Positions 58,921 through 64,000 of a DNA stretch of 64,000 nucleotides are shown piece by piece. This DNA is from Planctomycetota bacterium (GTDB lineage: Bacteria; Planctomycetota; SZUA-567; H5-PLA8), in the NCBI GenBank assembly GCA_027493525.1, contig JAOSKN010000004.1:14868-78867 (forward strand). Direction: 5' to 3'. Both the position numbers and the translations under genes were made by a program. Under the pieces are notes generated by a model. That model did not search any database. It worked only from the letters and a program-made list of their open reading frames with translations, and was not told the origin of the DNA. Within the stretch, counting starts at the first letter, position 1, and every line of letters starts with the position of its first letter.

Positions 58921-59310
58921 TAGGGACGCGACGAAAATAGCCCAGCCTTTCAAGGCTGGGACCATGAACGCCGCGTCACGAACTCAGTCCCGCAGGGACG
59001 GCTGAGGGGTACGCGCCCGCCGCCGAGCGGCAACGGCGATTGTTCATCGTTCATGGTCCATTCATCATCGTTCATCGACGGCCCAAGGGGCCGGGCCACT
59101 CGGGCAATGAACAATGGAAAATGAACGTTGAACGATGACCCATCGCCGTTCATCGCCCGGCACGGGGCGGCTGCGCCGACCCGTGGCACGCAAGCGAGCA
59201 GGATGCTCGCGGTACGGGAAGAACCAGAAGACGCGCGGGCGGGACGCCCGCGCGAGCCGGCGGGGACGCCGGCGCTACAGCGGCTGCGCCGACCCGTGGC
59301 ACTTGCGGGC
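58921..59310. repeat. Composite repeat block: X unit (GGGACGCGACGAAAATAGCCCAGCCTTTCAAGGCTGGGAC...CAGTCCCGCAGGGACG), a 125-bp palindromic ATGAACG-heptamer element, and REP hairpins
   Basis: X unit 58921-59000 recurs at 61468-61550. Palindromic element 59031-59155 recurs at 62336-62462. REP hairpins at 59157-59300. Confidence 0.85.
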
Positions 59311-60426: not shown

Positions 60427-61236
60427 TCAATGCTTCGGAAACAGGAACACCGGCCGTTCGCCCACCCGCGCCGCGCCGCGCTGCCGCAGCAGCCCCGTCA
60501 GCTCCGGGAACTTCGCCAGGCAGAAGCCGTCGAGAAACAGCGCGCCGCCCGGCGCCACGCGCGGCGCCAGCCGCTCCAGCAGCCGCTGCGCCTTGTCCGC
60601 CACGAAGTACCCGATGAAGTTCCGGCACAGCACCGCGTCGAACGGCTTGGCCTGGTCCGGCAGCGGCAGCGCGAAGGCGTTGCCCACTTCGAAGTGAATC
60701 CTCGCGAGCACCTCCGCCGAGACCTTCCCCGGCGTCTCCAGGTGCTCCACCGGGAACCCGAAGGTCAGCCGCCCGCTCCGCGCCGACTCCACCAGCGCCG
60801 GCTGGATGTCGAAGGCGTGGATCTCGAAATCGAGCTTCCGCTTCAGCAGGAACGCCGCGACCGTGAACGCCTCGTCGCCCAGGCTGCACGGGACGACCAG
60901 CACCCGCGCCTTCCGCCCCTGCACGTGCGGCAGGATCTCGCGGTCCAGCGCCTCCAGTTCGCCCTCGGTGAAGCGGAAGAGCGTCGTCTCGGGCGTGATC
61001 AGGTTCGCCAGCACCTTTTCGCGCAGCGTCATCTTCGCGAAGACGTCCGCCCCCGCGTGCCGCTGCCCGCGGCAGCCGTCCAGCATCCGCCGCTCGAACG
61101 CCGTCAGGTCCGCCGCCCCGTTCAGCGCCGCGAGCAGCTCCGAGACGTAACGCGAGTGCGGATCCAGCTCCGCGTGCGCGTGCTCGATGTAGCGCCGGAC
61201 TTCGGCCAGATCTTTGAAAGCGGCGGCTTCGGGCAT
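60427..61236 (-). CDS. CheR-like SAM-dependent methyltransferase
   Basis: ETTLFRF....L.......RVLVVPCSLGDEAFTVAAFL....FEIHAFDI....ESAR.G......FDAVLCRNFIGYF fits the CheR MTase-domain pattern. No other chemotaxis genes are nearby. Confidence 0.6.
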   Translation of the reverse strand: MPEAAAFKDLAEVRRYIEHAHAELDPHSRYVSELLAALNGAADLTAFERRMLDGCRGQRHAGADVFAKMTLREKVLANLITPETTLFRFTEGELEALDREILPHVQGRKARVLVVPCSLGDEAFTVAAFLLKRKLDFEIHAFDIQPALVESARSGRLTFGFPVEHLETPGKVSAEVLARIHFEVGNAFALPLPDQAKPFDAVLCRNFIGYFVADKAQRLLERLAPRVAPGGALFLDGFCLAKFPELTGLLRQRGAARVGERPVFLFPKH

Positions 61237-61285: not shown

Positions 61286-61700
61286 CTGTAATCAGTGATC
61301 AGTGATCGGACGCGATGTAATGAACGTGGGTCGATCCTCGGGTGTCGCGCCCGCAGCCGTGCCACGGGTCGGCGCTGCCGCCGTAGCGCCGGCGTCCCCG
61401 CCGGCTCGCGTGGGCGTCCCGCCCGCGCGTCTTCCAGTTCATCCCGTTTCGCCCGCCGCCGCGTCCCCCAGGGACGCGACGAAAATAGCCCAGCCTTTCA
61501 AGGCTGGGACCGTGAGCGCCGCCCCACAAGCCCAGTCCCGCAGGGACGACTGAAGCGCAGGCGTACCCCGCAGCCGTCCCTGCCGAGCATCCTCCAACGT
61601 GCTGGCTGGGTACAAGTTGCAACCGCTTGCGTTGACTTGCTGCGGCATGTTCCATAGGCTCTGGATTTACTAGGCCGCACGAATGCGGTCGAATACATGT
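61286..61700. repeat. Composite repeat block ending in copy 1 of a ~190-bp leader element (61511-61700)
   Basis: Short CTGTAAT/CAGTGAT array, REP hairpins 61359-61440, X unit 61468-61550. The leader is >90% identical by eye to 62477-62667. Confidence 0.85.
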
Positions 61701-61713
61701 TTGATGCTTCGTC

Positions 61714-62091
61714 ATGAGCGCCATCGCACATTCCAACTTTGAGACTTTCGCAGAGGGATTTGTGCGAGCGTATTGGCAGACCATCAAGAGCGGCGCTTTC
61801 TCGATGCCTCCACATGAGCCAGTGGAGGAGAGCATCGAGGAGTTGCTCTCCGAGGTTTCCCATCGGACGGAGTTTCAGCGCGACGGCAGTTTGCACGAGC
61901 TTCACATGGAGAACGCGCACGGAGATTGGTGGCGGTTTTCGTTTCGAGCCAGCGGAGGTCGCTGGGAGTTGGTTGGAGCATCAGCCCGTTCGGACAGCGA
62001 GATTCCGCACGACCTACTTGGTTCAGTCTACTCGCATCATTTTGCGCCTATGCTTCGCCATGTTGAGAGAGTCACGAATGAACGCATCTAA
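61714..62091 (+). CDS. Orphan hypothetical protein (125 aa)
   Basis: Non-biased, lower-GC ORF starting 13 nt after leader copy 1 (MSAIAHSNFETFAEGFVRAYWQTIKSGAF...). No family recognised. Confidence 0.55.
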   Translation: MSAIAHSNFETFAEGFVRAYWQTIKSGAFSMPPHEPVEESIEELLSEVSHRTEFQRDGSLHELHMENAHGDWWRFSFRASGGRWELVGASARSDSEIPHDLLGSVYSHHFAPMLRHVERVTNERI

Positions 62092-62139
62092 CCATGCGCT
62101 GCAGCGAACCCGGGCTGGTGGCGCTGACTGAGGTTGGTT
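62086..62139 (+). other. attC-like imperfect palindrome 1 (weak)
   Basis: ATCTAAC (fits RYYYAAC and overlaps the stop codon) ... GTTGGTT. Internal arms ctGCAGCGaacc / ggCGCTGAc pair with a bulged base. Overall pairing is modest. Confidence 0.3.
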
Positions 62140-62335
62140 TGTGATCTGGTGCCACTGCGCTGCGGTACTCCGCAGCCAGTGCGAGGCGCGCACCCCGGAT
62201 TTAACTCGCACGTAGACCCGAATGAAGTAACTTGAGTGGGCCACGCGATCCGGACGGCGAAGCACGGGCTGCCTACAGCCGCAGCCAGCGGCGCCAGTTC
62301 CTGAAAGGCACAAGGCGAGGCGAAGGGTGACAGTG

Positions 62336-62667
62336 CCACCAGCCCGATGAACGACAATTGGTCATCGTTCAACGTTCATTTCCCATTGATCATTGCCGAG
62401 TGGACCGGCCCACGGGACTGTCGATGAACAATGACGAATGGACAATGAACGATGAGCCATGGCCGTTGCCGTTCAAGCGGCCGTCCCGCCCCACAAGCCC
62501 AGTCCCGCAGGGACGACTGAAGCGCAAGCGTCCCCGAAGTCGTCCCTGCCGAGCATCCTCCAATGTGCTGGCTGGGTACAAGTTGCAACCGCATGCGTTG
62601 ACTTGCTGCGGTATGTTCCATAGGATCTGGATCTACTAGGCCGCACGAATGCGGTCGAATACATGTT
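62336..62667. repeat. Second copy of the 125-bp palindromic heptamer element (62336-62462) plus copy 2 of the ~190-bp leader (62477-62667)
   Basis: Direct comparison with 59031-59155 (reverse complement about 85% identical) and with 61511-61700. Confidence 0.85.
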
Positions 62668-63027
62668 ATGCCTCACTTGCCGTCCAACCTCGCTGAGCAC
62701 ATGGCGGAGTACTTCAGCCGCGATGCGCGACATTGGCCGGGCGCCCGAGCCGACCACCGGGCGCGGTTGATCGCGCTAGCGTTCGATGACGCGACGGCTT
62801 GGTACGTCGCGCCACTGACTCAAGCGTGGAGCACCCTTCTTGCGACGGGATATACCGCGGAGCACGGATCAACGATCGCGTTGACAACGCCCGGCCAAGA
62901 CACCGACGCTATATTGCGATTTCGCGAGCAACGGCACGCTGAGACGAACGACAGAGGTTTGGCGTATGAACTTAGCTTCGCGTCGTCGGAGGATGTCTGG
63001 CCCGGCTGGTTTTCACTCGAAGCGTGA
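62668..63027 (+). CDS. Orphan hypothetical protein (119 aa)
   Basis: The ATG immediately abuts the end of leader copy 2 (MPHLPSNLAEHMAEYFSRDARHWPG...). Composition is not Arg/Pro-noise. No family recognised. Confidence 0.5.
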   Translation: MPHLPSNLAEHMAEYFSRDARHWPGARADHRARLIALAFDDATAWYVAPLTQAWSTLLATGYTAEHGSTIALTTPGQDTDAILRFREQRHAETNDRGLAYELSFASSEDVWPGWFSLEA

Positions 63028-63028
63028 G

Positions 63029-63129
63029 GCATAACCAGCCGTTGCAGCGGACCGGGCGGGCGTCGCGGTCCTCGTGATTCGAGAGTGCGTCCGGTGCCCG
63101 CCCGGCCGCTGAACGTCGATCCGTTAGGC
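63029..63129 (+). other. attC-like imperfect palindrome 2 (101 bp)
   Basis: GCATAAC ... GTTAGGC (fits GTTRRRY). Arms ccgttGcagcggAccgggcgggc / gcccgcccgg-ccgctg-aacg give about 20 bp of pairing with two single-base bulges. Starts 2 nt after the stop codon. Confidence 0.4.
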
Positions 63130-63272: not shown

Positions 63273-64000
63273 CTACTCCCCCAACGCCGCATTCAACAGC
63301 TTCGCCAGCCGCACCCCCGCCGCGTAAAGCTGCCGCTCCACAAGATCCTTGTTCGCCGCGAAGTACGCGTCGCCCAGCAGCACCGGCCGTTCGGAGACCG
63401 GCACGTTCTGGTACACCCGCTCGCGCGCGAAGCCGTGGCTCTCCGTCGTCCAGGCGTCCGGGTCGCCCTCCGCCAGCTTCGCGGCCTGGTCCTTGAATTG
63501 CGCCTCCAGCGCGCCCGCGTAATCCTTCGCGTTCGATTCGCCAAGGCACGCGCGGACCAGGTGGATGTCCCAGACCTGGTGCAGGTTGCTCTTCTCGCCT
63601 TCTTTCTTCCACCAGACCTGCGCCAGGTTCCCGCCCTTGTCCGTCCCCGGCTTCCCGTCGATCTGGAGCTCCCGCGTACCGCAGTGCAGCGGCATGTGCA
63701 GATCCCCGGCGAAGTGGATCAGGAACTTGAGCGCCTCGAGCTTCTCCTCGTCCTTGAGTTCGGCGTTCGCCAGCCGCTTCGCGAACTCCTTGAGCTTCTC
63801 CGTGACGCACGGCCGCGCGCCGTGCTTCTCCGGCTCGTACCGCTCGTCGGCCAGCGGGATGTCCACGTAGTGCCAGCTCGCCGTCTCGCGCCGCTCCAGC
63901 CGCACGAAGTCCGCCCAGTTCGAGACGCTCGCCAGCGACTCGCCCGCGCCCAGCAGCGCCAGCACCCGCGCGCGCGCCTTCTCGGTCAGGTGCAACTGCG
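63273..64000 (-). CDS. S1/P1-family nuclease (5' end beyond the window)
   Basis: WHYVDIP and FLIHFAGDLHMPLHCG zinc-ligand motifs. The N-terminal WG..GH region and signal peptide are missing, so the gene continues past nt 64000. Confidence 0.85.
   Translation of the reverse strand, partial: QLHLTEKARARVLALLGAGESLASVSNWADFVRLERRETASWHYVDIPLADERYEPEKHGARPCVTEKLKEFAKRLANAELKDEEKLEALKFLIHFAGDLHMPLHCGTRELQIDGKPGTDKGGNLAQVWWKKEGEKSNLHQVWDIHLVRACLGESNAKDYAGALEAQFKDQAAKLAEGDPDAWTTESHGFARERVYQNVPVSERPVLLGDAYFAANKDLVERQLYAAGVRLAKLLNAALGE

Follow-up and report, generated by a model that had tools for sequence, protein, structure and literature searches.

A probable integrase-less integron-type array in a Planctomycetota genome, with a conserved promoter/hairpin module ahead of each cassette

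A 64,000-nucleotide stretch of a Planctomycetota bacterium genome (assembly GCA_027493525.1, contig JAOSKN010000004.1, here C4:14868-78867; hereafter the window) carries near its right end two small open reading frames (ORFs) that an initial annotation, made from the letters alone, had likened to gene cassettes with a shared leader upstream and attC-like palindromes downstream. Our analysis indicates that this locus is in all probability a small integron-type array without an integrase, in which each cassette stands behind a copy of one junction module, which we call C. The core of the array is ordinary; its interest lies in C, whose conserved promoter-like motif and hairpin run up to the crossover point and which is found across genera. 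The assembly searched comprises 7.46 Mb in 6 contigs (67% GC, 88% complete); plain coordinates below are those of the window, and positions elsewhere carry the name of their contig as a prefix (C1, C3 and so on). The parts of the array, all on the plus strand, are as follows, with scores from model R2 described below.

61615..61708, plus strand: module C, copy 1, with a -35-like TTGACT at 61632-61637 and a -10-like TAGGCT at 61655-61660; 84.2 bits with R2
61700..62133, plus strand: cassette 1, which starts TTTGAT, carries ORF1 (61714-62091, 125 aa) and ends with the G of the R' of site 1
62086..62139, plus strand: site 1, a putative degenerate attC with R'' ATCTAAC, L'' GCTGCAGCG, L' CGCTGA and R' GTTGGTT; it overlaps the TAA stop of ORF1
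62581..62674, plus strand: module C, copy 2, with TTGACT-N17-TAGGAT at 62598-62626, the hairpin at 62639-62656 and the crossover G at 62665; 84.7 bits with R2
62666..63123, plus strand: cassette 2, which starts TTATGC, carries ORF2 (62668-63027, 119 aa) and ends with the G of the R' of site 2
63029..63129, plus strand: site 2, a 101-nt attC with R'' GCATAAC, L'' GTT[G]CAGCGG[A]CCGGGCGGGC, L' GCCCGCCCGGCCGCTGAAC and R' GTTAGGC

Since Rfam has no attC family, we trained a covariance model, R1, on 12 attC sites, those of the window being left out; seven came from class 1 cassettes on two plasmids, four from metagenomic arrays and one from elsewhere in this genome. The training sites were trimmed to 28+29 nt (57 positions, with a 7-bp R box, a 13-bp L box and two bulges), and the structure of the model is backed by covariation, as none of 500 shuffles reached the observed score. 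Applied to both strands of the 64-kb window at E<=10, R1 gave exactly two matches, site 2 and site 1, and no match at ~43.7-47.4 kb; genome-wide there were seven matches at E<=1. Site 2 scores far beyond chance (31.1 bits; E is 1.6e-5 for the window and 0.0018 for the genome), and its boundaries are returned to the base. Both of its strands fold into a stem of ~20 bp (4+6+10 bp; dG -31 kcal/mol, z = -3.6 to -3.9), which on the top strand is interrupted by the single-base bulges G63044 and A63051, both on the 5' arm. With that score, that stem and those two single bulges, the attC-type geometry originally read into site 2 is borne out, and its geometry fits that of the 12 reference attCs; its length lies within the ~57-141 nt usual for attC sites.

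The core sequences are of the expected kind at both sites, where R'' RYYYAAC and R' GTTRRRY occur in inverse orientation: at site 2 GCATAAC has one deviation and GTTAGGC is perfect, and at site 1 ATCTAAC is perfect and GTTGGTT has one deviation. The TGCAGCG/CGCTGA arm motif that the two sites had been said to share is real, and the attCs of the blaVIM and blaOXA-10 cassettes have it as well. A BLAST search of site 2 against plasmids gave no meaningful match, as expected of attC sites. The bases after site 2 are TTAGGC, a canonical cassette start.

The R'' of a cassette is complementary to the crossover G together with the six bases that open that cassette. At cassette 2 this relation is perfect, the R'' of site 2 (GCATAAC) being the exact reverse complement of G + TTATGC, and at cassette 1 there is one mismatch (G|TTTGAT against ATCTAAC) that is absent from ORF1 homologues, whose G|TTAGAT is an exact complement. 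Two other cassettes of this genome that are preceded by C, at C3:1215 kb and C3:1899 kb, likewise match exactly (GTTAGGC against GCCTAAC).

The coordinates first given for the two ORFs proved correct, and so did their lower GC content, which is 0.52-0.62 over 61600-63000 compared with 0.68-0.75 for the flanking genes. The two are unrelated to each other, and BLAST against the whole genome shows ORF1, ORF2 and site 2 each to be single-copy. There are 29 homologues of ORF1 (52-90% identity) and five of ORF2 (55-75% identity), all of them in metagenomes or metagenome-assembled genomes (MAGs), and the homologues of both sit in rows of small same-strand ORFs without a Pfam match. One row with an ORF2 homologue (locus L035) lies downstream of an integron integrase gene, a tyrosine recombinase with an internal deletion that scores 243 bits against the integron-integrase model TIGR02249, whose cut-off is 265; a textbook attC terminates the first cassette of this array, and the ORF2 homologue begins with GTT|ATGCC, inside the R' of the attC ahead of it, and has GCATAAC behind it. 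Cassettes with ORF1 homologues start G|TTAGATGCT or G|TTAAATGCC and finish GCATCTAAC, and their contexts vary: they stand behind classical attCs in L041 and L042, behind a C-like module in L038 and next to part of a group II intron in L036. The occurrence of the same cassettes in different arrays and contexts argues that they have been mobile. Neither ORF was found in 30 relatives of this genome, and in the two genomes of the same genus synteny is limited to the CheR-like neighbour gene; the objection that these might be conserved core genes of the locus is thereby answered. The R1 score of site 2, the complementarity of R'' with the cassette start, the homologues in arrays and the lack of both ORFs in relatives all support the reading of these genes as cassettes with attC sites.

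No Pfam family could be assigned to ORF1 or ORF2 by a Pfam search. AlphaFold models both as small alpha/beta proteins (predicted local distance difference test scores of 90 for ORF1 and 82 for ORF2), and a structure search of the two models against the PDB gave no match at E < 0.02, every TM-score being < 0.45, which speaks neither for nor against the immunity-protein-like folds asked about in the initial annotation; lack of assignable function is usual among environmental cassettes. Two observations on the surroundings of ORF1 homologues may be recorded here. On an NCBI MAG contig (L036, 5816-6415; identical in L037) the cassette switches after its R'' (ATCTAAC + 5 nt) to a same-strand ORF with the group II intron maturase domain PF08388, which may be the remnant of an attC-targeting group II intron, and on a further contig (P0024) a DUF4160/DUF2442 gene pair comes after the ORF1 homologue.

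The leaders of the two cassettes (61519-61699 and 62486-62665) share 95% identity along 183 nt, and their similarity stops abruptly at ...GAATACATG|TT, the G lying at 61699 and 62665. The initial annotation had found a conserved leader at odds with typical integron cassettes; the leader is indeed real, but it is not private to this locus, since its last ~95 nt, module C, recur in several genera. C consists of a near-invariant TTGAC, a TAnnnT/C 17-18 nt further on, a GGCCGCA-N4-TGCGGTC hairpin and GAATACATG, of which the last G is the crossover base. In copy 1 the hairpin is GGCCGCA-CGAA-TGCGGTC (61673-61690) and is followed by GAATACATG, with the crossover G at 61699; the TTGACT-17-TAGGAT of copy 2 was picked up by a promoter scan.

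A model of C made from 15 sequences (R2) was scanned over 401 Planctomycetota genomes. It found five copies in this genome, namely the two in the window and those at C3:1215100, C3:1899473 and C1:1638007, and 18 copies in six other genomes of two families (three in G001, two in G002, six in G012, three in G007, three in G332 and one in G243), with G332 and G243 belonging to another family than the remaining C-bearing genomes. In 23 of 27 copies the sequence after C reads G|TT and goes on with R'-type bases, in most cases TTAGGC or TTGGGC, and its hairpin covaries between lineages (GGCC..GGTC becomes GACC..GGTC or GGTT). A significant attC lies downstream on the same strand at 11 of ~21 C loci; in this genome three of the five best attC matches are situated 0.35-0.7 kb behind one of the only five C copies. 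Tandem C-cassette-C units like that of the window occur in G007, G332, G002 and G001.

The array of G332 has eight significant R1 attCs (E < 0.01) and one weak one, with two C copies in its middle. At its head, in divergent orientation, stands an intI fragment that shares 51% identity with IntI1, and the region next to this fragment is not C; C thus belongs to the interior of the array and is not its attI. An attI is unique and lies between intI and the first cassette, and C is multi-copy, occurs in tandem and is 9 kb away from the G332 intI remnant. As to this intI itself, it is in pieces, with residues 11-96 at the array head (contig C33 of that genome; L221 = G332:C33:8000-27500), a second N-terminal fragment within the array and residues 97-323 at the end of its contig C22 (80501-81193); the attCs are on the strand opposite intI, and this is a bona fide Planctomycetota integron.

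An R''-like nnnnAAC box is present 2-3 nt before the hairpin in 12 of the 27 C copies (those of G007, G332 and G243 and part of those of G012). In such copies the last ~42 nt resemble a reduced attC made up of R'', 6-7-bp stem, 8-nt spacer and R', and one copy folds accordingly. We considered whether C could be an ordinary attC and rejected this, as it has no long-range pairing (z = -0.3 to -0.7) and no R1 match. Ahead of every internal C in the window, G007 and G332 lies, at a distance of 100-530 nt, the end of a short attC that resembles R' (G|TTGGTT, C|TTAGCC and G|TCAACC), and the R' of this preceding short attC is a candidate for the 5' boundary of C (window, L204 and G332). Among genome contigs, a search with a 15-mer from C, a pattern too short for the purpose, gave 120 matches, almost all chance or coding and none C-like; a longer degenerate pattern, run on metagenomes, found just three genuinely C-like copies, and no attC could be detected on their short contigs. 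On an ENA contig (L038, 4440-4550) a divergent C-like end precedes an ORF1 homologue, with the hairpin TGCGAA..TTCGCA followed by ACTCAATACAATG|TTAGATGC; the family of junction modules is therefore wider than R2 detects.

The surroundings of cassette 1 and C (61345-62474) are a mosaic of dispersed repeats, within which BLAST against the genome resolved five modules, A to E. Those other than C are:

61345..61510, plus strand: repeat module A, resembling a repetitive extragenic palindrome (REP), with > 90 partial copies in the genome
61511..61581, plus strand: repeat module B, a GC-rich hairpin with ~12 copies, which forms the first part of leader copy 1
62111..62344, plus strand: repeat D, 234 nt long, of which the genome has ~20 copies at ~95% identity
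62345..62474, plus strand: repeat E, a palindromic element of ~125 nt, with an inverted copy at 59025-59155

A further copy of B, starting at 62486, precedes C copy 2. Repeat D has 14-bp perfect terminal inverted repeats (GGCTGGTGGCRCTG...CAGTGCCACCAGCC), and it is the repeat that bears on site 1. The 5' half of site 1 (ATCTAAC CATGC GCTGCAGCGAACCCGGG) is homologous to the attC of L041 (ATCTAAC TATCG GACTGCAACGAACCCCGCG), L041 and L042 being loci with ORF1 homologues, and its 3' half from ~62111 onward (L' CGCTGA, spacer CTGAG, R' GTTGGTT) belongs to D, whose 5' end it forms. The terminus of D pairs with the L'' of site 1 in the bulge pattern G[n]T[G]CAGCG, over ~7 bp only. At 54 nt, with a stem of ~7 bp, a weak fold (z = -1.0) and 12.3 bits with R1 (E 1.3 in the window, 0.097 in 4.9 kb), site 1 is best called a degenerate attC; we cannot tell whether the end of D derived from an attC or D landed in one. 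The weaker pairing ascribed to site 1 at the outset was thus right, with the correction that half of the site belongs to a dispersed repeat. The accompanying objection, that the palindromes might be ordinary members of a REP family, does not hold for the single-copy site 2, and at site 1 it applies to the 3' 29 nt, which are D.

Repeat D was also tried as an attC-type element of arrays and rejected, because it has terminal inverted repeats and no R''/R' cores and because R1 finds no match in arrays of D. Such a run of D lies at C1:1647218-1652256 of this genome (G000; L001 7219-12257), where four D repeats are each followed by a different same-strand ORF of low GC (149, 359, 229 and 109 aa; GC down to 0.37; no attC match), and where an IS256-family transposase interrupts one D copy, the D coordinates of the two parts overlapping by 9 bp. 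D might be the leader or boundary of another kind of gene unit. Divergent copies at C1:1647980 and C3:1241894 have internal hairpins with compensatory changes, and relatives in the same and in other genera carry only the 3' half of D, positions 140-238.

Module A includes a hairpin resembling an intrinsic terminator on the minus strand (61489-61508), formed by CCCAGCCTTGAAAGGCTGGG and then CTATTTTC. An Rfam scan of 58.5-64 kb gave sub-threshold Acido-Lenti-1 matches to this module A hairpin and nothing on the sites, C or D; the matches, on the minus strand at 61462-61508 and 58931-58960, score 30.7 bits and 26 bits, below the cut-off of 37. The locus is flanked by genes for a CheR-like methyltransferase (60427-61236) and an S1/P1 nuclease (63273-63995), both on the minus strand. 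Elsewhere in the genome there is a second canonical attC, 60 nt long, at C3:1214705-1214764 (minus strand). It is 83-90% identical to the attCs of clinical class 1 cassettes of the fosE/catB3/aadA type (3687 plasmid records), and its R' is CTTCATG, in which G has changed to C, a change that would freeze the junction.

No integron integrase was found to accompany these sites. Against TIGR02249 the best match in this genome scores 77 bits (cut-off 265 bits), and none of 17 genomes of the family has a match above the cut-off; tblastn with IntI1 and the IntI of L035 found in this genome only Xer-like genes of ~31% identity, and the remainder of contig C4, which is 81 kb long, holds no recombinase-like gene. 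The absence of intI first noted for the window therefore extends to the assembly. By definition, attC sites clustered without an integron integrase form a CALIN and a single such site is a SALIN (PMC4889954; bioRxiv 10.1101/2022.09.11.507474). A CALIN requires at least two attCs within 4 kb and no intI; here the sites are 0.9 kb apart, with only site 2 significant. An intI with an attI beside the array, which would make a complete integron, is not found in this 88%-complete assembly. Judged from the sequence, then, the locus counts as a CALIN of two sites, and as a SALIN should site 1 be left out of account. Of the two classes suggested earlier, a CALIN-like cluster is the one that stands, given the attC evidence and the lack of intI; the array is of integron type and not a novel cassette system.

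We propose the following account of the array. Two unrelated single-gene cassettes would once have been moved by an integron integrase through G|TT crossovers. Ahead of each lies C, with its sigma-70-like TTGAC-N17-TAnnnT, 6-7-bp hairpin, 8-nt spacer and crossover G, and its predicted promoter would supply the start of transcription for an otherwise promoterless cassette. The signals for ORF2 expression must come from upstream, since its ATG begins at the third base of cassette 2. C may itself be a recombination-competent unit, whether as a promoter cassette that lacks a gene and has a reduced attC-like site or as an acceptor site, and this would explain why the similarity always stops at G|TT; the most economical reading of its sequence is that of a gene-less promoter-carrying cassette or junction module. 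The 190-nt leader would be C together with the host REP-like hairpin B, apparently duplicated recently, and D and E would have entered the space between cassette 1 and C copy 2 at a later time. With no intI present, the array is probably now frozen.

Several observations weigh against this account. Site 1 is not significant on its own, yet it is the only other R1 match and lies where an attC is expected; its L'/R' half is repeat D, of which most of the ~20 copies are not associated with cassettes. R1 is home-made from 12 sites and roughly calibrated, and with its filters off the 101-nt site 2 is missed, a window-length artefact of a model with 57 positions. About half of the C loci are without a detectable downstream attC, in this genus the R''-like box of C is degenerate (GATTTAC), and R1 does not recognise C as an attC. 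Finally, in an assembly that is 88% complete an intI could have been missed.

The role of C can be carried further or construed otherwise. It is possible, if rather doubtful, that C is a Planctomycetota-specific family of mobile, gene-less promoter cassettes with a miniature, non-canonical attC, which would spread in arrays with or without an integrase and put a promoter at the crossover before the next captured cassette, its solo copies serving as docking sites for an integrase acting in trans. We regard it as unlikely, though less so than the readings that follow, that C is instead a primary acceptor of the attI type with a Pc-like promoter, so that solo copies would be docking sites and the loci decayed or trans-served mini-integrons, each having taken up one or two cassettes through attC x C recombination. 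In keeping with this, C heads arrays that have no recognisable upstream cassette (in the window and at C3:1215 kb, C3:1899 kb and C1:1638 kb), its similarity always ends at G|TT and its copies in this genome have no attC-like fold. The position of two C copies in the middle of the long G332 array, 9 kb from an intI remnant whose adjacent region is not C, argues the other way, as do a C that follows a cassette within an array of G007, the lack of an adjacent intI in all seven genomes with C and the attC-like layout of 12 of the 27 copies.

An improbable alternative is that C was already a dispersed host promoter repeat with a hot secondary site (attG-type, GWT), at which a transient integrase inserted cassettes in the manner of a SALIN. 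Integrases do insert at genomic attG hotspots, and cassettes that land near promoters are expressed (Loot et al., bioRxiv 10.1101/2022.09.11.507474); this genome is, moreover, full of dispersed repeats. However, not one of the 27 C copies is empty, and their continuations all differ, with R'-type bases after G|TT in 23; the TTAGGC after site 2 is a canonical cassette start and not arbitrary host DNA, and C also occurs inside the bona fide array of G332. The remaining reading would dispense with integrons and see a mosaic of REP and miniature inverted-repeat transposable elements around two ordinary orphan genes, with palindromes due to chance or termination and a leader that arose when a promoter region was duplicated locally. 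This reading would accommodate the facts that A, B, D and E are genuine dispersed repeats, that one of them makes up half of site 1 and that site 1 is not significant, but it is largely refuted by the single-copy and significant site 2, the exact R''/R' complementarity, the cassette ends in common with homologues in arrays that have canonical attCs and IntI, and the association of C with attCs across genomes, and we consider it very improbable. We therefore retain the integrase-less array with C junction modules as the probable explanation.

Cassettes distant from the Pc promoter of an integron are usually thought to be silent, and the usefulness of large or integrase-less arrays is an open question in integron biology. 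If C is active, it would provide a concrete and testable mechanism for expressing stored cassettes, including those in arrays without an integrase; if the promoter-cassette reading is true, every stored gene would be its own transcription unit. C may also expose a minimal recombination site that current attC models miss, in which case junctions in Planctomycetota would be under-counted. The presence in an uncultured Planctomycetota genome of attCs close to those of clinical class 1 cassettes bears on the origin of cassettes.

Among known systems, the locus recalls CALINs and SALINs (PMC4889954; bioRxiv 10.1101/2022.09.11.507474), with which it shares single-ORF cassettes in one orientation, attCs with R''/R' cores and a bulged L stem, the absence of intI from the assembly, and cassette ORFs that lack an assigned function and have a GC content below that of the host. 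It differs from them in that a conserved promoter/hairpin module, and not a prior attC or arbitrary host DNA, precedes each cassette, that host repeats have invaded the spacer and that the attC of cassette 1 is degenerate. Vibrio superintegrons and oral metagenomes are known to contain gene-less promoter cassettes (bioRxiv 10.1101/2023.11.21.568050; PMC6557892). Like these, C is a short non-coding unit of arrays that has a promoter-like motif on the sense strand and ends at the crossover point; the Vibrio and oral cassettes, however, are bounded by ordinary attCs and diverse in sequence, whereas C is one conserved family in at least two Planctomycetota families, its 3' site is a miniature of ~42 nt with a bulge-free stem that R1 misses, its 5' boundary is undefined and its promoter is a predicted one. 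With the attI/Pc region of classical integrons C has in common a promoter upstream of the G|TT crossover and cassettes at exactly one position, and differs from it in not lying beside intI, in being multi-copy and in tandem within arrays, and in having no similarity to the attI1 of L045. Site 2, in turn, has no overall similarity to the blaVIM attC and a longer centre (101 vs 72 nt), yet it comes close to the blaVIM/blaOXA-10 type: its R'' GCATAAC, L'' GTT[G]CAGC.G[A]C, L' ..GCTGAAC and R' GTTAGGC are as in blaVIM, and its bulges are at the same positions.

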